Assembly (NCBI RefSeq): GCF_056746865.1
Contig: NZ_CM163382.1
Strand: one strand, 5' to 3'
Length of the DNA stretch: 64,000 nucleotides
Part shown: positions 28,221-41,284 of the stretch, one piece after another
Position numbering within the stretch: position 1 is the stretch's first letter
How the letters are laid out: every line of letters begins with the position of its first letter
The notes under the pieces: generated by a model
Told to the model about the DNA's origin: nothing
What the model saw: the letters and a program-made list of their open reading frames with translations, nothing else
Databases searched by the model: none
Translations under genes and position numbers: made by a program

Positions 28221-29141
28221 ATGACAAACTTCACGACCAGCACGCCGCATGATGCATTATTTAAAACCTTTCTCACGCACCCTGACACTGCGCGGGATTT
28301 TATGGAGATTCATTTACCTAAAGATTTACGTGAACTGTGCGATCTCGATAGCTTAAAACTGGAATCCGCCAGCTTTGTCGATGAAAAATTGCGGGCGCTA
28401 CACTCCGATATTTTATGGTCGGTAAAGACCCGCGAAGGCGATGGCTATATCTATGTGGTGATTGAACATCAGAGCCGCGAGGACATTCATATGGCCTTTC
28501 GCCTGATGCGCTATTCCATGGCGGTGATGCAGCGCCATATAGAGCATGATAAACGCCAGCCGCTACCGTTGGTCATCCCGATGCTATTTTATCACGGTAG
28601 CCGTAGTCCTTACCCCTGGTCCCTGTGCTGGCTGGACGAATTTGCCGACCCGACTACCGCACGGAAGCTTTATAACGCCGCGTTCCCGCTGGTGGATGTT
28701 ACTGTCGTGCCAGACGACGAGATTGTGCAGCATCGCAGAGTCGCCCTGTTGGAGTTGATCCAAAAGCATATTCGCCAGCGCGATCTGATGGGGCTTATCG
28801 ATCAACTGGTAGTATTACTGGTTACAGAGTGTGCTAATGACAGCCAGATAACTGCGCTGTTAAATTACATTTTACTGACTGGCGATGAAGCGCGTTTTAA
28901 TGAGTTTATCAGTGAACTTACCCGTCGAATGCCACAACACAGGGAGCGAATAATGACGATTGCAGAGCGAATTCATAATGATGGATATATAAAAGGGGAG
29001 CAGCGCATTCTTCGATTGTTGTTGCAGAATGGGGCGGATCCTGAATGGATACAAAAGATTACCGGACTTTCGGCAGAGCAAATGCAGGCATTAAGGCAGC
29101 CCTTGCCTGAGCGTGAGCGCTATTCATGGCTCAAGAGTTAA
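28221..29141 (+). CDS. rpnD: Rpn-family recombination-promoting nuclease (PD-(D/E)XK, transposase_31-like), full length
   Basis: 306 aa, N-terminus [38 protein letters not shown] typical of the Rpn/YhgA family; uninterrupted reading frame. Confidence 0.8.
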
Positions 29142-29384: not shown

Positions 29385-30797
29385 TTATTCCATTGCCCGA
29401 TACACGGCCTCGCCAATTTGCTTCAGTGCTTCGCGATAGGTTTCGCTGAGCGGCAAAGCGCAGTTGATGCGCAGACAATTACGGTATTTGCCGGAAGCTG
29501 AGAAAATCGAGCCTGCCGCCACCTGGATTTTCATGCGGCACAGCTGCCGCGCGACGCAGACCATATCGACCTGTTCAGGCAATTCTATCCACAGTAAAAA
29601 TCCGCCTTTCGGGCGCGTAATACAGATTTCGCAGGGAAAATATTCCCGTATCCAGCAGGTATAAAGCGCCAAATTGCGCTGATAGATCTGCCGCATCCGC
29701 CGGATATGGCGATGATAGTGACCTTCCAGCACAAACGTTGCCGCCGCCATTTGCGTGGACGGCACATTAAAGCTGCTGATGGCGTATTTCATATGCATCA
29801 GTTTATCGTGATAACGCCCCGGTGCGACCCAACCCACGCGCAGGCCTGGTGCAATACTTTTACTGAACGAGCTGCACAACAGCACTCGCCCGTCGATATC
29901 CCAGGAATGAATGGTCCGCGGGCGCGGATACTCCGTCGCCAGTTCGCCATAGACATCATCTTCAAAAATCACAATATCATGACGCTGAGCGAGAGAGAGA
30001 ACGGCCCGTTTGCGCGCGTCCGGCATAATAAATCCCAGCGGATTATTACAGTTTGGCACCAGAATGATGCCTTTAATCGGCCACTGTTCCAGCGCCAGTT
30101 CCAGCGCTTCAACGCTGATGCCAGTTTCTGGATCGGTTGGGATTTCAATCACTTTCACGCCCATGCCGCGCAGCATCTGCATCGAACCGTAATAACAGGG
30201 GGATTCGACCGCGACAATATCGCCCGGTTTACACACTGCCATTAACGCCAGCGACATCGAGTTATGGCAGCCGCTGGTGATGATGATGTCATCGGCGGTG
30301 ACCACCGAGCCGCTGTCGAGCATCAGGCGGGCAATCTGCTCTCGCAATACTCGCTGACCGGCTAACAAGTCATAACCGAGAACGGTTTGCAGATTATGCT
30401 GCACCACCCGGCTTAGCTCCCGCCACAGCGGTTTCAGGCTGGGCGCTTCGACATCCGGTGTGCTTTTGCTTAACGGAACAATGGAACTGTCGCTATGCGC
30501 CTCCAGCATATCCAGCACCTGATCCCACTGGGTAATTTCCACCGGGCGCTGCACCGGACGCGTCATCGGCGGTACTGGCGGCTGGGCTTTACGTTGTGCG
30601 ACAAAATAACCCGAACGCGGCTGCGGAGTGATGAGCTTCATCGTCTCCAGCGTCTGATACGCCTGCTGCACGGTGCTGATACTGACGCCGTGCTCCTGAC
30701 TTAAGCTGCGCACCGACGGCAATTTCTCCCCGTGACGATACAGCCCTTGCTCAATCCGTTCGGCAAGCAGAGTCGCCAGATGTTGATAACGCGTCAT
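29385..30797 (-). CDS. yjiR: MocR-family transcriptional regulator (GntR HTH fused to aminotransferase-like domain) YjiR
   Basis: 470 aa; N-terminal HTH (LPSVRSLSQEHGVSISTVQQAYQTLE) and a large PLP-fold domain. Confidence 0.82.
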   Translation of the reverse strand: MTRYQHLATLLAERIEQGLYRHGEKLPSVRSLSQEHGVSISTVQQAYQTLETMKLITPQPRSGYFVAQRKAQPPVPPMTRPVQRPVEITQWDQVLDMLEAHSDSSIVPLSKSTPDVEAPSLKPLWRELSRVVQHNLQTVLGYDLLAGQRVLREQIARLMLDSGSVVTADDIIITSGCHNSMSLALMAVCKPGDIVAVESPCYYGSMQMLRGMGVKVIEIPTDPETGISVEALELALEQWPIKGIILVPNCNNPLGFIMPDARKRAVLSLAQRHDIVIFEDDVYGELATEYPRPRTIHSWDIDGRVLLCSSFSKSIAPGLRVGWVAPGRYHDKLMHMKYAISSFNVPSTQMAAATFVLEGHYHRHIRRMRQIYQRNLALYTCWIREYFPCEICITRPKGGFLLWIELPEQVDMVCVARQLCRMKIQVAAGSIFSASGKYRNCLRINCALPLSETYREALKQIGEAVYRAME

Positions 30798-30973
30798 GCT
30801 GTATTCCTTATGTGGACCATACAGAGAGAAAAACCGGTACAGATGAGGCTAAAAAACCGGATGCAGATGCTGTTTTAACCTGTCTGTATGTTAAATAAAA
30901 GTAATATTTGAATCTGTATTGTGAACTGCCAGAAGGTGGATGATGAAGCCTCTGAAAGATGAGGAGGTAGCAG

Positions 30974-31138
30974 ATGGAATTTCACGAAAACAGAGCTAAA
31001 GCGCCGTTTATCGGCTTGGTGCAACTCTGGCAGGCGGTGAGGCGTTGGCGGCGGCAAATGCAGACCCGACGCGTGTTACAGCAGATGAGTGATGAGCGGT
31101 TGAAGGATATCGGGTTACGCAGGGAGGATGTGGAGTGA
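30974..31138 (+). CDS. yjiS: Small DUF1127-family protein YjiS (54 aa)
   Basis: ATG at 30974 preceded by GAGGAGG; translation MEFHENRAKAPFIGLVQLWQAVRRWRRQMQTRRVLQQMSDERLKDIGLRREDVE, an Arg-rich DUF1127-like peptide. It is below the ORF-track length cutoff. Confidence 0.7.
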   Translation: MEFHENRAKAPFIGLVQLWQAVRRWRRQMQTRRVLQQMSDERLKDIGLRREDVE

Positions 31139-31588
31139 GGGGGGATATAGATTTATATATAATAAAACGTTTTTATGTTTTTAAATTAAGTTATAAAAAT
31201 TTTCCCGAGACAATTCATCAATAGGTATGGAGTGTACAGGAATATCTTCTTCACTAACCTCTTTAAACTCATGTCGATAACGGTCAAAAAACGCACAGTG
31301 ATTACTTGTGTTTTTTGACTGACTTTACAACTCTCATTATTCGCTATTGTGCAGTTTCTCTAATTGTTTTATACCCTGGAAAGTTAAATGTCAGCTACTG
31401 AATACTTTTTGATTGTTTGAGATTTATTTTCATTTGAAATTATAAAATCAGGTGATAAATGAGTTGTGATTAATAGATGGTTGATATCATTTTTATCTAA
31501 AATTGATTTATAGTATCGACCTGAAAAAATAGTTGTTGCCGCCTGAGTAACTATACAATATTCTGAAAGGTTTTCTTTCAAATTAGAA

Positions 31589-34500
31589 ATGTTGTGGGGT
31601 TTTGTTTTTGTATCTTTTATCTCTAAGGAGCTTGCTTTGGGTCAATCAGAATACATTTCATGGGTAAAATGTACTTCCTGGCTAAGTAACTTTGTGAATC
31701 TTAGAGGGTTGAGACAACCGGATGGCCGTCCTCTTTATGAATATCATGCAACCAATGATGAATATACCCAATTAACGCAGCTACTCCGTGCAGTCGGTCA
31801 ATCACAATCTAATATATGTAATAGGGACTTTGCTGCCTGTTTTGTTCTTTTTTGCTCTGAGTGGTACCGCAGGGATTATGAACGGCAATGCGGATGGACG
31901 TGGGACCCTATATATAAAAAAATAGGGATTTCATTCACCGCCACAGAGCTTGGTACTATCGTACCGAAAGGGATGGAAGATTACTGGCTGCGCCCAATTC
32001 GATTTTATGAATCTGAACGACGCAATTTTCTCGGAACATTATTCAGTGAAGGTGGTTTACCTTTCCGGCTACTCAAAGAATCAGACAGTCGCTTTCTGGC
32101 TGTTTTCTCCAGGATCCTTGGACAATATGAGCAAGCAAAGCAGTCAGGTTTTTCTGCCCTTTCGCTGGCAAGAGCTGTCATAGAAAAATCAGCGCTGCCA
32201 ACTGTTTTTAGCGAAGATACCTCTGTAGAACTTATCAGTCATATGGCTGATAACCTCAATTCCTTAGTACTTACTCACAACCTAATAAATCACAAAGAAC
32301 CAGTACAACAGCTTGAGAAGGTTCACCCTACCTGGCGAAGCGAGTTTCCAATACCGTTAGATGATGAAACAGGAACGCATTTTTTGAATGGACTGCTATG
32401 CGCAGCCTCTGTAGAGGCTAAGCCTCGACTACAAAAAAATAAGAGTACGCGTTGCCAATTCTATTGGTCAGAAAAGCATCCAGATGAGCTTAGGGTGATA
32501 GTATCTCTTCCGGACGAAGTTTCCTTTCCTGTAACAAGCGAGCCGTCAACTACGCGCTTTGAACTTGCCATTTGTGAAGATGGTGAGGAAGTCTCTGGCC
32601 TTGGGCCAGCCTATGCTTCTCTGGAAAACAGACAGGCAACAGTTCGATTACGTAAAAGCGAAGTGAGATTTGGCAGGCAAAATCCATCGGCAGGTTTGTC
32701 GTTAGTGGCTCGTGCTGGAGGGATGATTGTTGGGAGCATTAAACTTGATGACAGTGAAATTGCCATTGGTGAGGTGCCGTTAACCTTCATCGTTGATGCA
32801 GATCAATGGCTGTTACAGGGACAGGCTTCTTGCAGTGTGCGAAGCAGCGATGTTCTGATTGTGCTCCCTCGGGATAATAGCAATGTTGCTGGTTTTGATG
32901 GCCAATCGAGGGCAGTAAACGTATTAGGACTAAAAGCACTACCTGTGAAGGGATGTCAGGACGTTACAGTTACAGCAAATGAAACTTATCGGATTCGCAC
33001 CGGAAGAGAACAAATCAGCATCGGAAGGTTTGCTCTAAATGGAAAGCGTGCAAGCTGGGTTTGTCATCCAGATGAAACATTTATTGGTGTACCAAAAGTC
33101 ATTTCTACACTACCGGATATTCAAAGCATTGATGTAACGCGTTACCTGAGCGGAATTTCAATTGAGCAATGTCATATACAAGAGATGCTGGGGGCTCAAT
33201 ATCTTTCTATCCGTAATAGTAAGAATGAAACGCTCTTGCGTCGCAAAATCGGTATTTTGCCTGCTGATTTCAGTATTGAGATAAAAGGTGGAATACACGC
33301 AAATGAAGGCACTATCGTAATCACCACACAGCATCCTTGTGTAGCAAAACTTAAAGATAAAACATTGGAGGCTACACGTAAGCGTACTGAGGGGCGAACA
33401 GAGATACAACTCAAAGCGGAAGGGGTACCTCCGGCATTTATTACATTACAAGTTCTGCCTAATTTGGCGGCTGACCCCATCGATATTGAGTTACCTTTTC
33501 CCGCTAAAGGCTGTCTCGCTCTTGATGTAAACGGACGTCCTCTGGATAAAAACATTACGCTGCATGATCTGCTGGGTTCCAGAGCGTTTCTGTTCTCCAG
33601 AAATGGCGAGCCGACAAGATATACATTGCAGTTGCATTTGCGCTCCGTTAGTGGATTACAGGCATGGCACGAATGGTGTTATACGGCGTTGAGCGATCGT
33701 CCTGTTGAATTGAATCTCTATAGTCTGCGCGAACATATTGAGAACCTGATTTCACTTGAGGCAGGTATTGACCAGGTTGTTGAGATGCGTATTACGGGGG
33801 CGGGTGTGGTCATGGCCTGGCAAATTCGTCGCTATAAATACAGTCTGCGCTATGATTATGAAAAAGAACTATTACTCAGCCAGTCAGTGAACCATCGTGC
33901 TGGACAGATTCCTTCCCCCGTTATCATGCTGTTAAGTGAACCCGAGAGGAAATCCATCCCCTTAGCATCAAGAATGAGCGAGGGAGTGCCTGTCGGTGAA
34001 TATGAGTTGAGCTCAATCGTTAACAAAAATGGACCGTGGTTGGTTGTCCCTAAACCGGGTGAAGAGATGGCTTTTCGTCCCTGCTTCATTCGTGGCGAAT
34101 CTTCGTTACCGGTAGAAGAAAGCAACATCCGCTCATTGCAGAAAGCGACCCAGCTTTTTAATCCACAGGCAGAAGTTAATACCATCACACTGGTTCTCGG
34201 ACAGATGGCTAACGATCCTGCCCATTCCGGCTGGCAATTTATGCGTAGCCTGTACGATCAATTTGGTTATTTACCACTGGCAACCTTTGAAGTATGGCGT
34301 GCACTGGTGCAGCATCCGCAGGCATTGGCAATGTCGCTCTTCAAATTTGAAATGTCAGCAGAGTACCTGAGTCGTATTGAGAATGAGTTCCCTATTCTAT
34401 GGGAGTTTTTCCCCATCTTTGAGATCAAAGCGGCATCTGAGCGTTTCAAATTGTTCCTGAGCCAAAAAGGTGCACCGGAGGAAACCCAGAAATTACTGGT

Positions 34501-34927
34501 TACTAATATGTTTCAACGGCTGGGGCTCGTGTTCCCGACATATGCCGATGAAATTGAGAAATGGTTAAGTAACGGACATCTCCCCCCGTCTATTCCTGAG
34601 TCTTTTGTCCACGTGTGGTATCAGGAGCTTTTACGTGAGCATAGTGAAGCTCAATGGCCAGAGTACGGCAGCAAGCGGCTGCATAGCTGGATGGCATCAC
34701 AAAAAAATCCAGTGATTGGTATTAATCCTGACGCAAATCACCGCTATTCCGTGGCCTTGTTACCCGTCTTCGCTGCAGCTGTGGCAAGCGGAAATGCTTC
34801 TTTTGAATCTGTATTTGACCGTAAACCCGGTGCCGTATTTTTCCTGAGGCAAGTCAGGGATTTCGATTCCCGCTGGTTTAAGGCCATCTTCCAGTGCAGC
34901 CTGTTGCGTTATGTTGCTAAAAAATAA
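31589..34927 (+). CDS. Large protein of unknown function (up to 1112 aa), first gene of a two-gene candidate defence operon; DruH-like by architecture
   Basis: Long uninterrupted ORF ending 12 bp before the helicase gene. No P-loop, nuclease or methylase motif recognised by eye. Coding sequence is visibly AT-richer than its neighbours. An alternative TTG start at 31637 has an AAGGAG RBS 6 nt upstream. From memory this corresponds to a full-length version of the yjiT fragment of K-12. Confidence 0.75.
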   Translation: MLWGFVFVSFISKELALGQSEYISWVKCTSWLSNFVNLRGLRQPDGRPLYEYHATNDEYTQLTQLLRAVGQSQSNICNRDFAACFVLFCSEWYRRDYERQCGWTWDPIYKKIGISFTATELGTIVPKGMEDYWLRPIRFYESERRNFLGTLFSEGGLPFRLLKESDSRFLAVFSRILGQYEQAKQSGFSALSLARAVIEKSALPTVFSEDTSVELISHMADNLNSLVLTHNLINHKEPVQQLEKVHPTWRSEFPIPLDDETGTHFLNGLLCAASVEAKPRLQKNKSTRCQFYWSEKHPDELRVIVSLPDEVSFPVTSEPSTTRFELAICEDGEEVSGLGPAYASLENRQATVRLRKSEVRFGRQNPSAGLSLVARAGGMIVGSIKLDDSEIAIGEVPLTFIVDADQWLLQGQASCSVRSSDVLIVLPRDNSNVAGFDGQSRAVNVLGLKALPVKGCQDVTVTANETYRIRTGREQISIGRFALNGKRASWVCHPDETFIGVPKVISTLPDIQSIDVTRYLSGISIEQCHIQEMLGAQYLSIRNSKNETLLRRKIGILPADFSIEIKGGIHANEGTIVITTQHPCVAKLKDKTLEATRKRTEGRTEIQLKAEGVPPAFITLQVLPNLAADPIDIELPFPAKGCLALDVNGRPLDKNITLHDLLGSRAFLFSRNGEPTRYTLQLHLRSVSGLQAWHEWCYTALSDRPVELNLYSLREHIENLISLEAGIDQVVEMRITGAGVVMAWQIRRYKYSLRYDYEKELLLSQSVNHRAGQIPSPVIMLLSEPERKSIPLASRMSEGVPVGEYELSSIVNKNGPWLVVPKPGEEMAFRPCFIRGESSLPVEESNIRSLQKATQLFNPQAEVNTITLVLGQMANDPAHSGWQFMRSLYDQFGYLPLATFEVWRALVQHPQALAMSLFKFEMSAEYLSRIENEFPILWEFFPIFEIKAASERFKLFLSQKGAPEETQKLLVTNMFQRLGLVFPTYADEIEKWLSNGHLPPSIPESFVHVWYQELLREHSEAQWPEYGSKRLHSWMASQKNPVIGINPDANHRYSVALLPVFAAAVASGNASFESVFDRKPGAVFFLRQVRDFDSRWFKAIFQCSLLRYVAKK

Positions 34928-34939
34928 AAAGGAATAAGG

Positions 34940-37900
34940 ATGACTACACGCTATTTTTCGTCACTTATTGAACAATCGTTGTCTCGTTCAACTGAAGCAA
35001 CGCTCAGTATCATGGGCGTTACCAACCCGCAGCTGCGTGAACATCTCGCGCAACAAATGGGGGCTGATTGTGGGAAACCGGGCTCATTCCTTGCTTCTCC
35101 GGTATTCCAGCAAATGTTTGGCTGGAAGGAGTCAAACCACACGATGCGCAGCCTGACGGAAGGCAACGCATTGTTGAGCAAAGCAGTGGTTGATTCACTG
35201 GATGATCAGAATAATGGCCGGTACCGGTTTGGTGCTGACTGGAGGCCTTTTACGCACCAGTTAGCCAGTTGGAAAGCTTTGCTGGAAAAGAAACATTCAG
35301 TGGTGGTAACCAGTGGTACGGGTTCAGGTAAAACGGAATGTTTTATGGTACCGGTGCTGGAAGATCTTTACCGGGAACTGCATGAAAATGGCAACAATCC
35401 GTTGGTCGGTGTCCGAGCCCTTTTTCTCTATCCATTGAACGCCCTGATTAATTCACAGCGCGAGCGTCTGGATGCCTGGACGCGTGGTTTTGGTACAGGG
35501 ATCCGCTACTGCCTTTACAACGGCAACACCGAAAACCTACACGCTTCGGTAAAAAGCGAACAGGCAAAAAGGCCGAATGAGGTGCTCTCGCGCGAAAAAA
35601 TGCGTGAAGAACCTGCGCCGATTCTGGTGACCAACGGCACGATGCTGGAATATATGATGGTTCGCCAGGTCGACGCCCCGATTATCCAGCAATCTAAAGC
35701 ACAAAAATCACTACGCTGGATTGTACTGGATGAAGCGCATACCTATGTAGGGTCGCAGGCCGCTGAACTGGCGCTCCAGCTGCGTCGTGTGATGACCGCG
35801 TTTGGCGTGACACCAGATGACGTGCGCTTTGTCGCGACCTCTGCGACCATTGCCGGCAGCGACGCTGAAAAGCAGCTGAAAAAATTTCTCTCTGAATTAT
35901 CCGGTATCCCGCAGGAGCGCATCGATGTTCTGGACGGAAGTCGGGTGATTCCTGAACTGGAACCATCCAAAAACGTTTCTGTTCCGTTAGACGAGATAGA
36001 GCAAATACCTGATCTGGATCTAAGAGATAAAAATGATAATAAAATTAAAGGGATAAGTCCTGAGCGCTTTTATGCGCTTACGCATTCCCCCGAAGCGCGT
36101 TACATACGTGAGATGTTGGTCAAACAGCCCAATCCGATGAAGCTGGATGAGATAACAGAGCGGTTACACGTGCTGACAAAACAGCATTACAGCCAGCAGG
36201 AAGTACTGCGTTGGATCGATGTCTGTTCAGGGACTCAACCTAATGCAAAGGATCCCGCATTTCTTAAAGTCAGGGCGCATATCTTCCAGCGTAATACCCA
36301 GGGAATATGGGCTTGTGTTGATAAAGATTGCAGATTAAAGCACGGTACACCGCTCGACAAAGGCTGGCCCTTTGGCTATGTGTATGTGAACCAGCGACAA
36401 AATTGTGACTGTGGAAGCCCTGTATACGAAGTTGCATTCTGTAATGATTGTAATGAGCCTCATCTTCTGGCACGGGACAAAAAGGGCAAACTAGTCCAGT
36501 GGGAAAATAAAGGTGGCGATGAATTCTCTTTGCAGGATGAAGTACCTGTTGAACATGACGCTACAGAAGAAAAAGTCGAAAAAGAGAACAGTTTTCAGCC
36601 TCCGTTGATTATTGCCGCAGGAGAGACCAGCGAGGCAGGTTATACCCTACAACGCCTCGACCGTCAGACGCGCCGTATTGGCGTTATTAACAATGACAGC
36701 ATTCCGCTGATTATTAATGATATTGAACAGGTTTGTAGTGCCAGTGGCTGTGGCTACAGAGGCATGAGTGGGAAACAGCCCTTCCGGCGTGCACTATTAG
36801 GTGGGCCATTTTACGTTACTAATATCGTGCCCACCGTTCTAGAGTATTGTCAGGACTTTACCAGTGATGAAGGCAAAGAGGGCGTCGGACCAGATTCGTT
36901 GCCAGGACGAGGTCGTCGACTCATCACCTTTACAGACAGTCGACAAGGGACAGCCCGAATGGCGGTGCGTATGCAGCAAGAAGCAGAACGCAGTCGCTTA
37001 CGCGGAAGCGTAGTCGAAATTCTCAGCTGGCATCAAAGGACGCAAACGTCTACAGCGCCGAATGCCAATGCCGATCTGGAAAAATTAGCGGCCAGGGCGA
37101 AGCAAGCCCGTGAGCAGGCAGAAGAATATCGAAGCTGGGGAATGCCAGACCAGGCGAAATTGTCACAAGCACAGGCTGAACAGCTTGAACAGGCTTATCA
37201 GGCTGCAACCGGTGGGAAAGCTGCGACTATCCTGGTATCCCGAACCTGGACGGAGATGGTTAACGAGCTTAAAGAGAGAGCCGATATCCGCGGGCCGGTT
37301 CTGCAATATAACCATTATCTTAAGCCTGAAGTGTTTAATGAAAACGGCGGCCCCCTTAAGCTTTCTGAAATGTTGTTGTTCCGGGAATTCATGCGTCGCC
37401 CTAAACGGACTAACAGCCTGGAAACACAGGGGCTGGTTCAGGTTGGTTACCAGGGGCTGGAGAAAATACATAAGAGCCCCTTGCACTGGCAGGAAAAAGG
37501 ATTAACGCTGGATGACTGGCGCGATTTTCTCAAGGTTACGTTGGATCATTACGTTCGCGAGAGCAACTTCACACAGCTGGATGATGAGCTGAAAAACTGG
37601 ATTGGTAGCCGTTTTTCATCAAAATTCGTCCGTAACCCGGAATCAAAAGATCCTGAAGATAATCAGAACAGACGCTGGCCTCAAATTCGTAATGGCAACG
37701 TATCCCATCGTTTAGCGAAGTTGCTGATGCTGGGGGCTGGATTCAAAACCGTCAATGCGGCAACTATTGATATTATCAATACATGGCTGAAAGAAGCATG
37801 GGCCCAACTTACCGGACCGCTTGCAGTACTGAAACCCGATGGCAACCGTTTTTATTTACCGAAAGAGCATATGACTTTTTCTTTAATCACGGATGCCTGG

Positions 37901-40900
37901 ATTTGCCCGGTAACCAATAAAATCCTGGATACGGCTTTTAAAGGCTTAACCCCTTATCTGCCTACCCATATTTCGTTCGAGCATCTTACCCTGGCGCAAT
38001 ATGACACTTTTGTCGCGCAGAAAGTCACAATGCCGGAAATCTGGAAGCTGGATCGTTCACAGGAAGACTACGCAGAGGGTCTGGCAAAAGCACGCGACTG
38101 GGTCAGCCATGATCCGCTGATCGCACAATTGCGGTCGGAAAACGTCTGGACAGACATTAACGATCGTGTCGTGGAAGGCGGCTTCTACTATCGTACTGCC
38201 GAGCACTCTGCCCAGCAGTCGTCAGAACGTCTGCAAAGCTATGAAAAGATGTTCAAGAATGGGCAACTAAATGTTCTCAACTGTTCCACCACCATGGAAA
38301 TGGGGGTTGATATCGGGGGTATTACTGCGGTGGTAATGAACAACGTACCGCCACATCCGGCCAACTATTTACAGCGCGCCGGGCGAGCCGGGCGTAGTAA
38401 AGAATCACGCGCGATCTCTTACACCCTATGTAAAGGTAACCCACACGACCAGCAGGTTTTTGCCAACCCGCTCTGGCCATTTGAAACCATGATCCCGGCA
38501 CCCATGGTCGCGATGAACTCCGCCCGACTGGTGCAACGTCACGTCAATGCATTATTACTGTCCGACTTTTTATGTAACGTTATTGGCGAAACCGATAAAG
38601 AAAAAACCAGCCTCGATAGCCTCTGGTTTTTCGGTGAAGATGACGGGCAGTCAAAATGCGAACGCTTTAAAATCTGGCTGGAACGTCCGGTTCTTGATAT
38701 CGACACGGCGCTGGAACGGCTGGTGAAAGGTACGGCGTTGCATGGTGCAAGAGCCGAATATCTGCGGGATAAAACAATCAACGCGATCACCTTCCTGCAA
38801 CAGCGGTGGCTCTCCGTTTATCGCGATCTCGTGACACAGGAGCGTGAGTCGCAGCCGCAAACGCCTTATCGTAAGCGCATAGAGCTGGAGAAGAAACGGC
38901 ACTGTGGCGAGTATCTGCTGCGCGATCTGGCTGCCAGAACCTTCCTGCCGGGATACGGTTTCCCGACAGATGTAGTGACGTTTGATAACTTCACGATGGA
39001 AGATTATATCCGCGAAAAATCGCAGAAAAGTCGTGATAAAAAGGACCGTGAAGATAACGTTTCCCGTTATAAAGGATTACCTTCCCGTAACCTCGGTGTT
39101 GCCATTCGTGAATATGCACCGGGAGCAGAGATCATCCTTGATGGCCGTGTCTTCCGCTCTGCCGGTGTCTCACTGCACTGGCACAACATTAATGCTGATA
39201 CCAATGAAGCCCAGCGTCTGGATTGCGCCTGGCGCTGTCACAAATGCGGGACCATTGGCTATGAAGAGGGGATGAGCAGTTCCGGGATGCTCTTTTGCTC
39301 CAATAGCGCCTGCGGCGAAAAAATAATCATGGATAATCGCCGTCAGGTGCTGCAGCCTGCCGGGTTTGTCACCGATGCACACGCTCCGGTAACGAACAAT
39401 ATTGAAACCATGAAATTCGTCCCGGTTGTCCCCGCGTGGGTCTTTGTTAAAGCAGAGCCCGTACCGTTGCCTAACCCGCTAATGGGTTATATGGCTTCTG
39501 GGGCTGATGGGCATGTTTTCCAGCAAAGTTTGGGGGAAGGTGGACACGGTTATGCATTGTGTCTGAGCTGTGGCCGTGCTGAGTCGATGCTGAATGAAAA
39601 TGATGCGCCGAAAAGTATGGAAGCTCACTATCCACCGCGTCCGGGTAAAGCGGATCGCGACAGCCAGAATCATCGTCTGATTTGCCCCGGTTCGACGGCA
39701 CTCATGAAGAATGTCACCCTGGGCGCACTGGCGCGTACCGATGTCTTTGAAATGGTTCTGCGCAAACCGCAAAACGGCGAGTATCTGCCAGATAACACAG
39801 AGGAGGGGCGGATTGTTGCCATGACTCTGGCGGTTGCTCTGCGTCAGGCGCTGGCGGGCGTTCTGGGTATCTCCGCCGCAGAACTCGGCTATTCTGTACG
39901 TCCGGTCAGACTGGAGGATGGGCAATCGGTATTAGCCGTACAGCTTTATGATGTGATCAGCGGTGGTGCAGGTTTTGCCTCCAGCGCACCGGTACACATT
40001 GAAGCTATATTGCAGGGAATGGTGAAACAGTTAGGCTGCCGCCATTGTGAGACTGCATGTAGTGAATGCCTGCTTGATTCCCAGACTCGCCACGATCACG
40101 ATTTGCTGGATCGCAAAGCGGCGCTGGCCTGGCTTGGCGATGACTTCACGTATTACATCGGTTTACCGGATGAAGAGACATTCTCGCTGCCGGATGCCCG
40201 CTACTGCCCTGGCGCCATTGGCGATACGATTCGCCGGGCGATTAACGAAGGCGCTGAAAAGCTCACCCTGTGGATGACCGGCGCGCCCAATGAGTGGGAT
40301 TTATACGCACGTCAGTTCCGCGCGGCGGTTCAGAACTATCGGCTAAAAGACAACGTCGAGGTCGATCTTGTTATTCCTACGGGAGTGGATGACCCGGACC
40401 TGTTGCATGAACTATCGCAATTTACTGCGCTGGGTGTGCGGCTGTGCCATGTTGAACAGGATCTGCAATTACCGATCGTTGCCCAGGTCACCTTTACCGA
40501 TCGCGTGATGACGCTGGCCTCTCGCAGCCAGCAGGCAACGATTCCGGGGCCGGAGTGGCACCTGAATGACGAACTGGTGGTGCGTAGTCTCGGTTATAAA
40601 ACGGTAGAACTGAACGAGTTTATTCTGCCGGCTAAAGCCACCAACGCTGTCGAGCGGGTCAAAGACATTCAGATCCACAAACAGTTGAATGGACCACTGT
40701 CGCAGTTTGGGCAACGCTTCTGGGACGTGCTGTTTAACGACCATGAAGAAGCGCAGTCACTGATGAATAACACGCGAATTACCGGCGTTCACTATACCGA
40801 TCGCTATCTGCAAAACCCGGTTGCGCTGGCGTTGTTGGGATCAATTCTGAGACCGCTAAAAACAAAGCTGACCGATGGCGCTGAAGTGACGCTGGATACG

Positions 40901-41284
40901 CTATTTAAAGATAAAGATCGCCCCGGTAACCGGCCTTTCCATGACTGGATGAGCATAGCGGATTTTCAGGATTTCGCTGATCAGTGGTTTGCTGCTGCGC
41001 TGGGCAGGCCGGTAGAACTGACGGTGTTCGACTCGCCGCGCGATATCCCTCACCATCGTAAACTGACGGTGACTTTTGAGGATGGTCAGGTATTGAAGAT
41101 CCGCTTCGATCAGGGGATGGGCTACTGGCGCATCAACTTTTCATCGCAATGGCATTACTTTGATTTCCGCGATGACGTTTCTTTCCAGTTAGTCAAAATG
41201 GCTCAGGCCTGCAAGGAAGGGAATGTCGCCAACAGCGAAGAGAGTTGGGCAACGGATGTGCTGGTGGAGGTGATCGCCTCCTGA
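34940..41284 (+). CDS. Giant (2114 aa) superfamily-2 DEAH-box helicase with Zn-ribbon / DUF1998-like Cys clusters; DruE-like by architecture
   Basis: ATG at 34940 with AAGGA RBS. Walker A GTGSGKTE (35315-35338), motif II IVLDEAH (35720-35740), motif [10 protein letters not shown] (38372-38395), Cys clusters CAWRCHKCG (39224-39247) and [11 protein letters not shown] (40037-40069). Operonic with the upstream 1112-aa gene. Confidence 0.85.

Follow-up and report, generated by a model that had tools for sequence, protein, structure and literature searches.

The systems described so far that come closest to the locus here presented belong, for the gene itself, to the small and arginine-rich proteins of the DUF1127 family. 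In E. coli the family is described as having a single member, represented in K-12 by YjiS (b4341). A single 2025 paper links this protein to phosphate signalling, reporting that it binds the sensor kinase PhoR in two-hybrid assays (in one fusion orientation only) and in far-western blots, and that, in a mutant lacking yjiS, phosphate uptake is accelerated and pstS is over-expressed, the latter as detected by northern blot (PMC12501420). PhoR is also bound by the Agrobacterium tumefaciens proteins SDP1-3, and a triple DUF1127 mutant of Agrobacterium is complemented by E. coli YjiS, with restoration of pstS regulation, as well as by CcaF1 of Rhodobacter, SDP1 and E. coli YjiS sharing only ~24% identity (PMC12501420). 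SDP1-3 and CcaF1 are similar to YjiS in their Pfam domain, small size and richness in arginine, whereas the YjiS proteins of enteric bacteria group in a clade of their own, with an extra N-terminal segment. CcaF1 further differs in being reported as an RNA binder (PMC8034643, as summarised in later papers).

The YjiS protein of Salmonella Typhimurium is a 54-aa orthologue with which the core MSDE.L.DIGL is held in common, the identity being 56% for the S. diarizonae representative. Its translation was demonstrated by Ribo-seq and western blot, and it was described as expressed under SPI-2-inducing conditions, associated with the inner membrane, able to pull down SsrA/B and responsible for a delay in macrophage escape (PMC11707872). 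A review adds that SsrA, the partner of the Salmonella protein, is absent from E. coli, and that the Agrobacterium mutant is not complemented by Salmonella YjiS.

Regarding the neighbours of the gene, two further types of system are of relevance. Regulators of the MocR/GabR type, to which YjiR is similar, consist of a GntR helix-turn-helix and an aminotransferase domain with a PLP lysine, and the pairs gabR-gabT and pdxR-pdxST share with yjiR-yjiS a divergent disposition of regulator and target, together with several direct or inverted hexamer repeats that contain TGT. Such TGT-containing repeats are typical of MocR operators (PMC5320631). On the opposite side of the gene, the so-called immigration control region has been described as a replaceable cassette "between yjiS and yjiA", with yjiS as a flanking framework gene (PMC3874165, PMC2481252).

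In the window, meaning here the whole stretch of 64,000 nucleotides that was analysed, yjiS occupies positions 30974..31138 of the plus strand, from ATG to TGA, and its translation is the 54-aa peptide MEFHENRAKAPFIGLVQLWQAVRRWRRQMQTRRVLQQMSDERLKDIGLRREDVE. This peptide is 100% identical to K-12 YjiS (b4341) over its 54 residues, and its location between yjiR and yjiT is also the same, the difference with the K-12 locus lying only in the downstream cargo, since druH and druE are intact in the window and their K-12 counterparts (yjiT/yjiV) are pseudogenes. The accession WP_000394280.1, which RefSeq names "yjiS: DUF1127 domain-containing protein", is that of YjiS both in the K-12-type strain 9A and in E. 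coli FDAARGOS_497; the 791 bp from 30798 to 31588 are 100% identical to the latter strain and 99.9% identical to K-12-type strains. The gene is thus an already known, named member of the core genome. A preliminary description of the window, made from the letters alone, had proposed an Arg-rich, DUF1127-like ORF of 54 aa with a good ribosome binding site, which it named yjiS, flanked by a MocR-type regulator and, downstream, by a candidate defence operon. All of this holds, the peptide that it quoted being contained in the translation, the motif GAGGAGG (30961..30967, plus strand) standing 6 nt 5' of the ATG, and the neighbours being yjiR and a Druantia type III operon.

The interpretation that we favour, with a probability of about 0.85, is that yjiS is a core DUF1127 gene that makes up one half of a yjiR-yjiS module, its position beside Druantia III being incidental. 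In such a scheme (i) YjiR would sense an amino compound through PLP, bind ATACAG boxes and set the transcription of both yjiS and yjiR, as predicted in 2016, (ii) the yjiS mRNA, which has a strong Shine-Dalgarno sequence, would yield a basic peptide that is for the most part helical, its translation being supported by sequence evolution and shown by experiment in Salmonella, (iii) the peptide would bind PhoR at the membrane and dampen the Pho regulon, both the binding and the dampening having been published in 2025 for the identical E. coli protein, and (iv) defence cassettes are swapped from a point ~5 nt past the yjiS stop codon.

Fold and reported partners of YjiS

The Pfam DUF1127 model (PF06568) matches residues 18-54 of YjiS with E = 3.8e-14 and 52.6 bits, the gathering cut-off being 23.3, and the match covers positions 1-37 of the 37 in the profile. 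Arginine accounts for 10 of the 54 residues. Among 33 orthologues, D45, G47 and L48 are invariant, and the D-I/V-G-L motif is present near the C-terminus. An AlphaFold model computed with these 33 orthologues reached a mean pLDDT of 81.6 and presents a long helix at residues 11-37, at first hydrophobic and then Arg-rich, followed by two short helices (residues 40-45 and 50-53) that surround the invariant MSDE.L.D.GL core. A sequence search of the PDB returned no solved DUF1127 structure, its best match having E = 0.57.

That DUF1127 peptides are often regulatory, as the preliminary description stated, agrees with the effects on PhoR and pstS and with the SsrA/B pull-down cited above (PMC12501420, PMC11707872). 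The way in which YjiS would exert such a role admits a second explanation, namely that it acts mainly as an RNA-binding protein in the manner of CcaF1, on the maturation or stability of RNA and not on a sensor kinase. Its Pfam domain is the one found in CcaF1, its basic helix is rich in arginine, and CcaF1 itself is reported to bind RNA via its DUF1127 arginines, as summarised in later papers (PMC8034643); the fact that CcaF1 and E. coli YjiS each complement the Agrobacterium triple mutant points in the same direction (PMC12501420). On the contrary, pull-downs of Salmonella YjiS gave no sign of RNA association, the protein being found in the inner-membrane fraction (PMC11707872), and the binding of E. 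coli YjiS to PhoR was observed by two-hybrid and by far-western (PMC12501420). Considering both sets of data, a mainly RNA-directed function of YjiS appears unlikely and is a minority alternative to the action on PhoR.

Divergent pairing with yjiR and the intervening spacer

The divergent partner of yjiS is yjiR (29385..30797, minus strand), which encodes a MocR-type regulator of 470 aa. Its Pfam domains are a GntR winged helix-turn-helix and Aminotran_1_2, corresponding to the fold-type-I, class I/II aminotransferases, and it matches GabR (4n0b) along its full length with E = 1e-21, retaining the SFSK motif of the PLP lysine. Among the evaluable Enterobacterales species loci, ranging from Escherichia to Dickeya, Brenneria and Lonsdalea, yjiR is the divergent neighbour of yjiS in 71 of 72, and the outer flanks on both sides of the pair vary by genus; in Klebsiella and Citrobacter, for example, yjiS is followed by genes for an efflux system and for a regulator of the MarR type. 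In Salmonella, yjiS is kept, and yjiR has been lost together with spacer boxes 1-5 (see below). The conserved gene order thus argues that yjiR-yjiS is an old two-gene module and that, of the neighbours of yjiS, yjiR is the meaningful one. Neither the presence of yjiS nor its pairing with yjiR is obligatory, since the gene is absent or truncated in ~30% of the complete E. coli genomes and Salmonella has yjiS without yjiR.

The control region between both genes (30798..30973) measures 176 bp in the window. Its length is 175-180 bp in 72 Enterobacteriaceae loci, a set that includes repeated records of E. coli, Klebsiella and Citrobacter, and 181-193 bp in the Pectobacteriaceae (Dickeya, Brenneria and Lonsdalea). 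The spacer contains five or six boxes of the type ATACAG, GTACAG or CTGTAT, four of them invariant across 19 genera and the other two largely conserved. Box 1 (30799..30804, minus strand, read as CTGTAT on the plus strand) abuts the yjiR start codon and is a candidate half-site of a YjiR operator. It is followed on the plus strand by box 2 (ATACAG, 30819..30824), inside the conserved block CCATACAGA, by box 3 (GTACAG, 30837..30842), invariant in the 19 genera and inside the conserved block CC(A/G)GTACAGAT, and by box 4 (ATGCAGAT, 30861..30868), a degenerate copy that is weaker and less conserved than the others. Boxes 5 (30884..30889) and 6 (30914..30919) are both ATACAG on the minus strand, CTGTAT on the plus strand, and both are invariant, box 6 being a direct repeat of box 5 at a distance of 30 bp.

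In an alignment of 70 species, exactly five RTACAG sites are found in 55 of the 70 spacers. Within the window, four exact copies of ATACAG are gathered in 121 bp, compared with 32 in the whole 64 kb, a density ~70-fold above the window average. Because synonymous sites of yjiS are saturated among the species compared (median dS 1.45), the invariant blocks of the spacer are indicative of selection. What is most conserved about yjiS is that it is paired divergently with yjiR, over a spacer locked in length and provided with largely invariant ATACAG boxes.

A SELEX study placed an RpoD-holoenzyme site in the yjiR-yjiS spacer and proposed promoters by in-silico assignment (PMC3946193). When mapped by eye onto the window, the proposed yjiS promoter, TTAACC-15-TAAAAG, falls at 30875-30901 on the plus strand, with box 5 between its -35 and -10 elements, and the proposed yjiR promoter, TTCACA-19-TTTTAT, falls at 30925-30895 on the minus strand (PMC3946193). 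As so mapped, boxes 5 and 6 bracket the back-to-back -10 hexamers of yjiS and yjiR. Both positions are taken from that study alone and are to be regarded as weak, since a sigma-70 consensus scan of the spacer found no promoter.

Control of yjiS by YjiR through these boxes is a prediction, and one already made in comparative genomics. COG5457 is taken here to be the DUF1127/YjiS family, an assumption supported by yjiS being the divergent neighbour of yjiR. In a 2016 supplement, COG5457 is given as the regulated gene of the regulog "YjiR - Enterobacteriales" (E. coli b4340), and Rhizobiales MocR regulogs with COG5457 are included as well (PMC5320631). Among the alphaproteobacterial DUF1127 matches inspected, a MocR gene adjoined in one of four (Neorhizobium), a sample too small to generalise. 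A search of the literature returned no paper containing both "DUF1127" and "MocR", yjiR is not mentioned in the Salmonella YjiS paper, and, as far as it could be searched, the experimental DUF1127 literature mentions neither MocR nor yjiR. With respect to gabR-gabT and pdxR-pdxST, the yjiR-yjiS pair would differ in that the regulated gene encodes a signalling peptide of 54 aa where the other pairs have an enzyme of metabolism or a transporter, and in that binding of the regulator is predicted only. If true, control of yjiS by YjiR would reveal the input that acts upstream of a small protein reported to tune PhoR, which would represent an incremental advance and not a discovery.

Other elements considered in this region were discarded. 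A hairpin GCCUCU...GAGGAG (30948-30967) that could mask the Shine-Dalgarno sequence folds no better than shuffled sequences (z = -1.0), and its 5' arm becomes CCAC or CUAC in Enterobacter and Leclercia, without compensation. An upstream ORF in another frame, beginning at 30940 and running over the start of yjiS, lacks conservation in other genera. Pho boxes were also contemplated, as CTGTAT resembles the half-site CTGTCA. Pho boxes have an 11-bp tandem spacing, and the spacer boxes, when measured by eye, lie 18-30 bp apart. When positions 30500-31800 were compared with Rfam (E <= 1), no known RNA element was recognised, the output being limited to sub-threshold noise from archaeal snoRNA families.

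The cassette junction and the downstream Druantia III operon

Downstream of yjiS, the window carries an intact Druantia type III operon (31589..41284, plus strand). It is formed by druH/yjiT (31589-34927; PADLOC DruH3, 1827 bits; start at 31637 in RefSeq) and by the helicase gene druE (34940-41284; PADLOC DruE3, 2701 bits), both on the plus strand. Between yjiS and druH lies an AT-rich spacer (31147..31588, plus strand) of ~450 bp and ~31-33% GC, in common only with the Druantia-type loci of K-12 and E. whittamii; it travels with the Druantia cassette and not with yjiS. An RpoD site of its own, TTGAGA-18-TATAAA (31417-31446), and an H-NS site have been reported in it (PMC3946193).

The left junction of the immigration control region cassette was located at 31139..31146, in agreement with two comparisons. 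When 30798-31588 was used as megablast query, 3,739 E. coli genomes were matched and only 626 of these matches extended past yjiS, those in the other ~3,100 genomes ending at query positions 341-349, equivalent to window positions 31138-31146. Similarly, the alignment of Druantia-type with other E. coli loci diverges ~5 nt after the yjiS TGA. Five arrangements were found after an intact yjiS in E. coli: intact Druantia III, degraded Druantia III, a DUF262/GmrSD system, symE with a type I R-M system, and penicillin G acylase followed by yjiA. In the GmrSD-type loci the next gene starts ~96 bp past yjiS on the same strand, whereas in the ST131-type loci symE is convergent at 42 bp from yjiS and is followed by the type I R-M system. 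Among 72 species-level Enterobacterales yjiS loci, DruH/DruE were present at one, that of E. whittamii; the remaining Druantia-type yjiS loci that were seen are those of E. coli, namely the window, FDAARGOS_497 and K-12 with its degraded copy.

These data bear on the possibility of a passive coupling, by which the YjiR-controlled yjiS promoter would read into whichever co-oriented cassette lies downstream, YjiS having no role at the protein level. The co-orientation of yjiS with druH agrees with it, as does that with the next gene in the GmrSD-type loci. In addition, a consensus scan detected no intrinsic terminator between yjiS and druH, and the sequence after the yjiS stop folds into no stable hairpin (z = -0.08). 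Against it, the spacer of ~450 bp is a part of the cassette, and its proposed promoter and H-NS site would tend to block read-through; no ATACAG box is found between 30919 and 33838, so that the yjiS-druH spacer holds none of the candidate YjiR sites; the convergent symE of the ST131-type loci indicates that co-orientation is not a general design; and a terminator-like hairpin follows yjiS in Enterobacter soli, though not in Klebsiella. Passive coupling is consequently judged improbable. A stronger version would have transcription from the yjiS promoter pass the junction into druH-druE, with the yjiR-yjiS module serving as a metabolite-responsive expression port for any defence cassette that lands there. 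Were this the case, Druantia expression would be tied to the PLP-sensed signal of the MocR regulator and, via YjiS and PhoR, to the phosphate status of the cell. Such a port seems very doubtful, and read-through as a designed feature is unlikely because the AT-rich spacer is bound by H-NS and lacks YjiR boxes, and because other strains have a convergent symE.

Even less can be said for YjiS being dedicated to the Druantia III system downstream, either as its regulator or as an accessory subunit, which the preliminary description had contemplated from the position of the ORF between yjiR and the defence operon. What speaks for it is that yjiS stands directly upstream of druH-druE in the same orientation, that proteins of its family are regulatory, and that no terminator was detected in between. 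Nonetheless, (i) YjiS matches zero PADLOC-DB families at E <= 0.01, Druantia models included, (ii) the Druantia-side spacer accompanies the yjiS region in just the 626 of 3,739 E. coli genomes mentioned above, and other cargo (penicillin G acylase, GmrSD, or symE with a type I R-M system) follows an intact yjiS elsewhere, (iii) DruH/DruE are missing at 71 of the 72 species-level yjiS loci, (iv) no DUF1127 ORF was found in a six-frame HMM scan of four plasmid-borne DruH-DruE loci (Pseudomonas luteola, Marinobacter, Azotobacter and an E. coli IncY plasmid), where the best hit reached 13.6 bits, antisense to druE, versus 113-116 bits for the positive controls, and (v) the AT-rich gap of 450 bp has RpoD and H-NS sites of its own reported. 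The comparison of loci thus largely refutes a dedicated role, which is left as highly improbable. It indicates instead, consistent with the favoured module, that yjiS is not part of Druantia III, the adjacency being incidental and yjiS constituting the fixed left framework gene of a slot for defence cassettes. A false lead is cleared in this way, and in the window yjiS is to be left out of both the components and the regulators of Druantia III.

Coding status and conservation of yjiS

When the yjiS sequence alone was searched by blastn against the complete genomes of E. coli (5,426), it was detected in 4,159, at full length in 3,736, and its annotation is present in ~3,700 of them. Orthologues were collected from 79 species-level loci, 59 of which were used to evaluate dN/dS. 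Across these 59 species the length of the protein stays within 53-56 aa, the start codon is ATG in 58, and the median pairwise dN/dS is 0.158 at the median dS given above. Column entropy summed per codon position amounts to 37, 25 and 66, variation being thus mostly concentrated at third positions. Upstream of the start, the Shine-Dalgarno sequence is largely conserved in both the 19-genus and the 70-species alignments, and the two G's at its centre show little or no variation in the former. Altogether, yjiS is under purifying selection, and the ORF is well conserved among homologous loci, an aspect on which the preliminary description had made its proposal depend.

The last explanation, a chance and unexpressed open frame, has in its favour only that yjiS is short and that many ORFs of similar length arise by chance in the window, and it is refuted, its likelihood being practically nil, by a Pfam score far above the gathering cut-off, by a dN/dS of 0.16 with conserved start, length and Shine-Dalgarno sequence, and by the observation of the Salmonella orthologue in Ribo-seq and western blot (PMC11707872) and of a phenotype for the E. 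coli mutant (PMC12501420). The gene is regarded as genuine because of the combination of domain match, annotation and selection signal, not because of the length of its ORF. The earlier remark that it had been missed by the ORF track is correct in that it is absent from the default list, the reason being solely a length threshold, as the ORF lister uses a default minimum of 60 aa and does report yjiS when min_aa = 30. An ORF of 54 codons is in itself unremarkable, dozens of similar size being found in the window.

Promoter proposals and the Salmonella locus

Regarding the control region (30798-30973) that separates yjiS (30974-31138, + strand) from the divergent MocR-type gene yjiR, the SELEX paper (PMC3946193) proposes TAAAAG (+ strand) as the -10 hexamer of yjiS and TTTTAT (- strand) as that of yjiR. 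These two hexamers overlap on opposite strands at 30895-30901 of the window, between boxes 5 and 6 of the ATACAG-type candidate YjiR operators, and a consensus scan across the whole spacer detected no sigma-70-like promoter.

A different arrangement is displayed by Salmonella enterica subsp. diarizonae (locus L070, 4427-6165), where yjiS is retained while yjiR and spacer boxes 1-5 have been lost. The upstream region of yjiS is here rebuilt, being preceded by a + strand gene of 456 aa and a terminator-like hairpin. Such a layout is in keeping with reports that yjiS in Salmonella has a different, SPI-2-type expression (PMC11707872).

Variation of yjiS and yjiR among E. coli genomes

A blastn search with the ORF alone shows that ~420 complete E. 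coli genomes retain just the 3' half of yjiS (query positions 73-163). It returns no match whatsoever in ~1,270 others, even though the species is said to have no other DUF1127 gene. In E. coli FDAARGOS_1301 (L010, 7900-8100), where yjiR and mdtM are absent, yjiS lacks its 5' half and the remnant directly adjoins an Rpn-family gene. In E. coli O157:H7 TR01 (L002, 6588-8000), the annotation marks yjiR, which has an internal stop, as a pseudogene; the adjoining yjiS is intact.

Genes flanking the yjiR-yjiS pair

In the window, rpnD (yjiP/yjiQ), encoding an Rpn-family recombination-promoting nuclease of 306 aa, is intact (28221-29141), while a K-12-type record carries an internal stop in this gene. 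Likewise, the Druantia type III operon (31589-41284), formed by druH/yjiT and the gene for the 2114-aa DruE helicase, is intact, whereas its E. coli K-12 counterparts are the fragmented pseudogenes yjiT and yjiV. Downstream of the operon lie mcrBC, symE, hsdSMR and mrr, as they also do in K-12. The longest druH ORF starts at 31589 (1112 aa), versus a RefSeq yjiT start at the position equivalent to 31637, and in PADLOC the top-scoring alignment to DruH sets in only at residue 19; the real start is probably the downstream ATG rather than 31589. In E. coli NN5 (L095, 4693-7233), a penicillin G acylase gene is the sole content of the yjiS-yjiA slot, which contains no restriction or defence genes.

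DUF1127 genes in alphaproteobacteria and in two MAGs

The alphaproteobacterium Neorhizobium alkalisoli (L089, 4421-6111) carries a DUF1127 ORF with a divergent MocR-type gene upstream, whose product shares 24% identity with YjiR over 467 aa. This pair echoes the Rhizobiales MocR-COG5457 regulogs of the 2016 supplement (PMC5320631). None of the three Mesorhizobium DUF1127 loci inspected has a MocR-type neighbour. Finally, two MAGs, one classed as Collinsella sp. and the other as Bacillota, include short contigs (L012 and L013) whose yjiS shares 93% identity with that of E. coli, which most likely reflects E. coli contamination of both bins.
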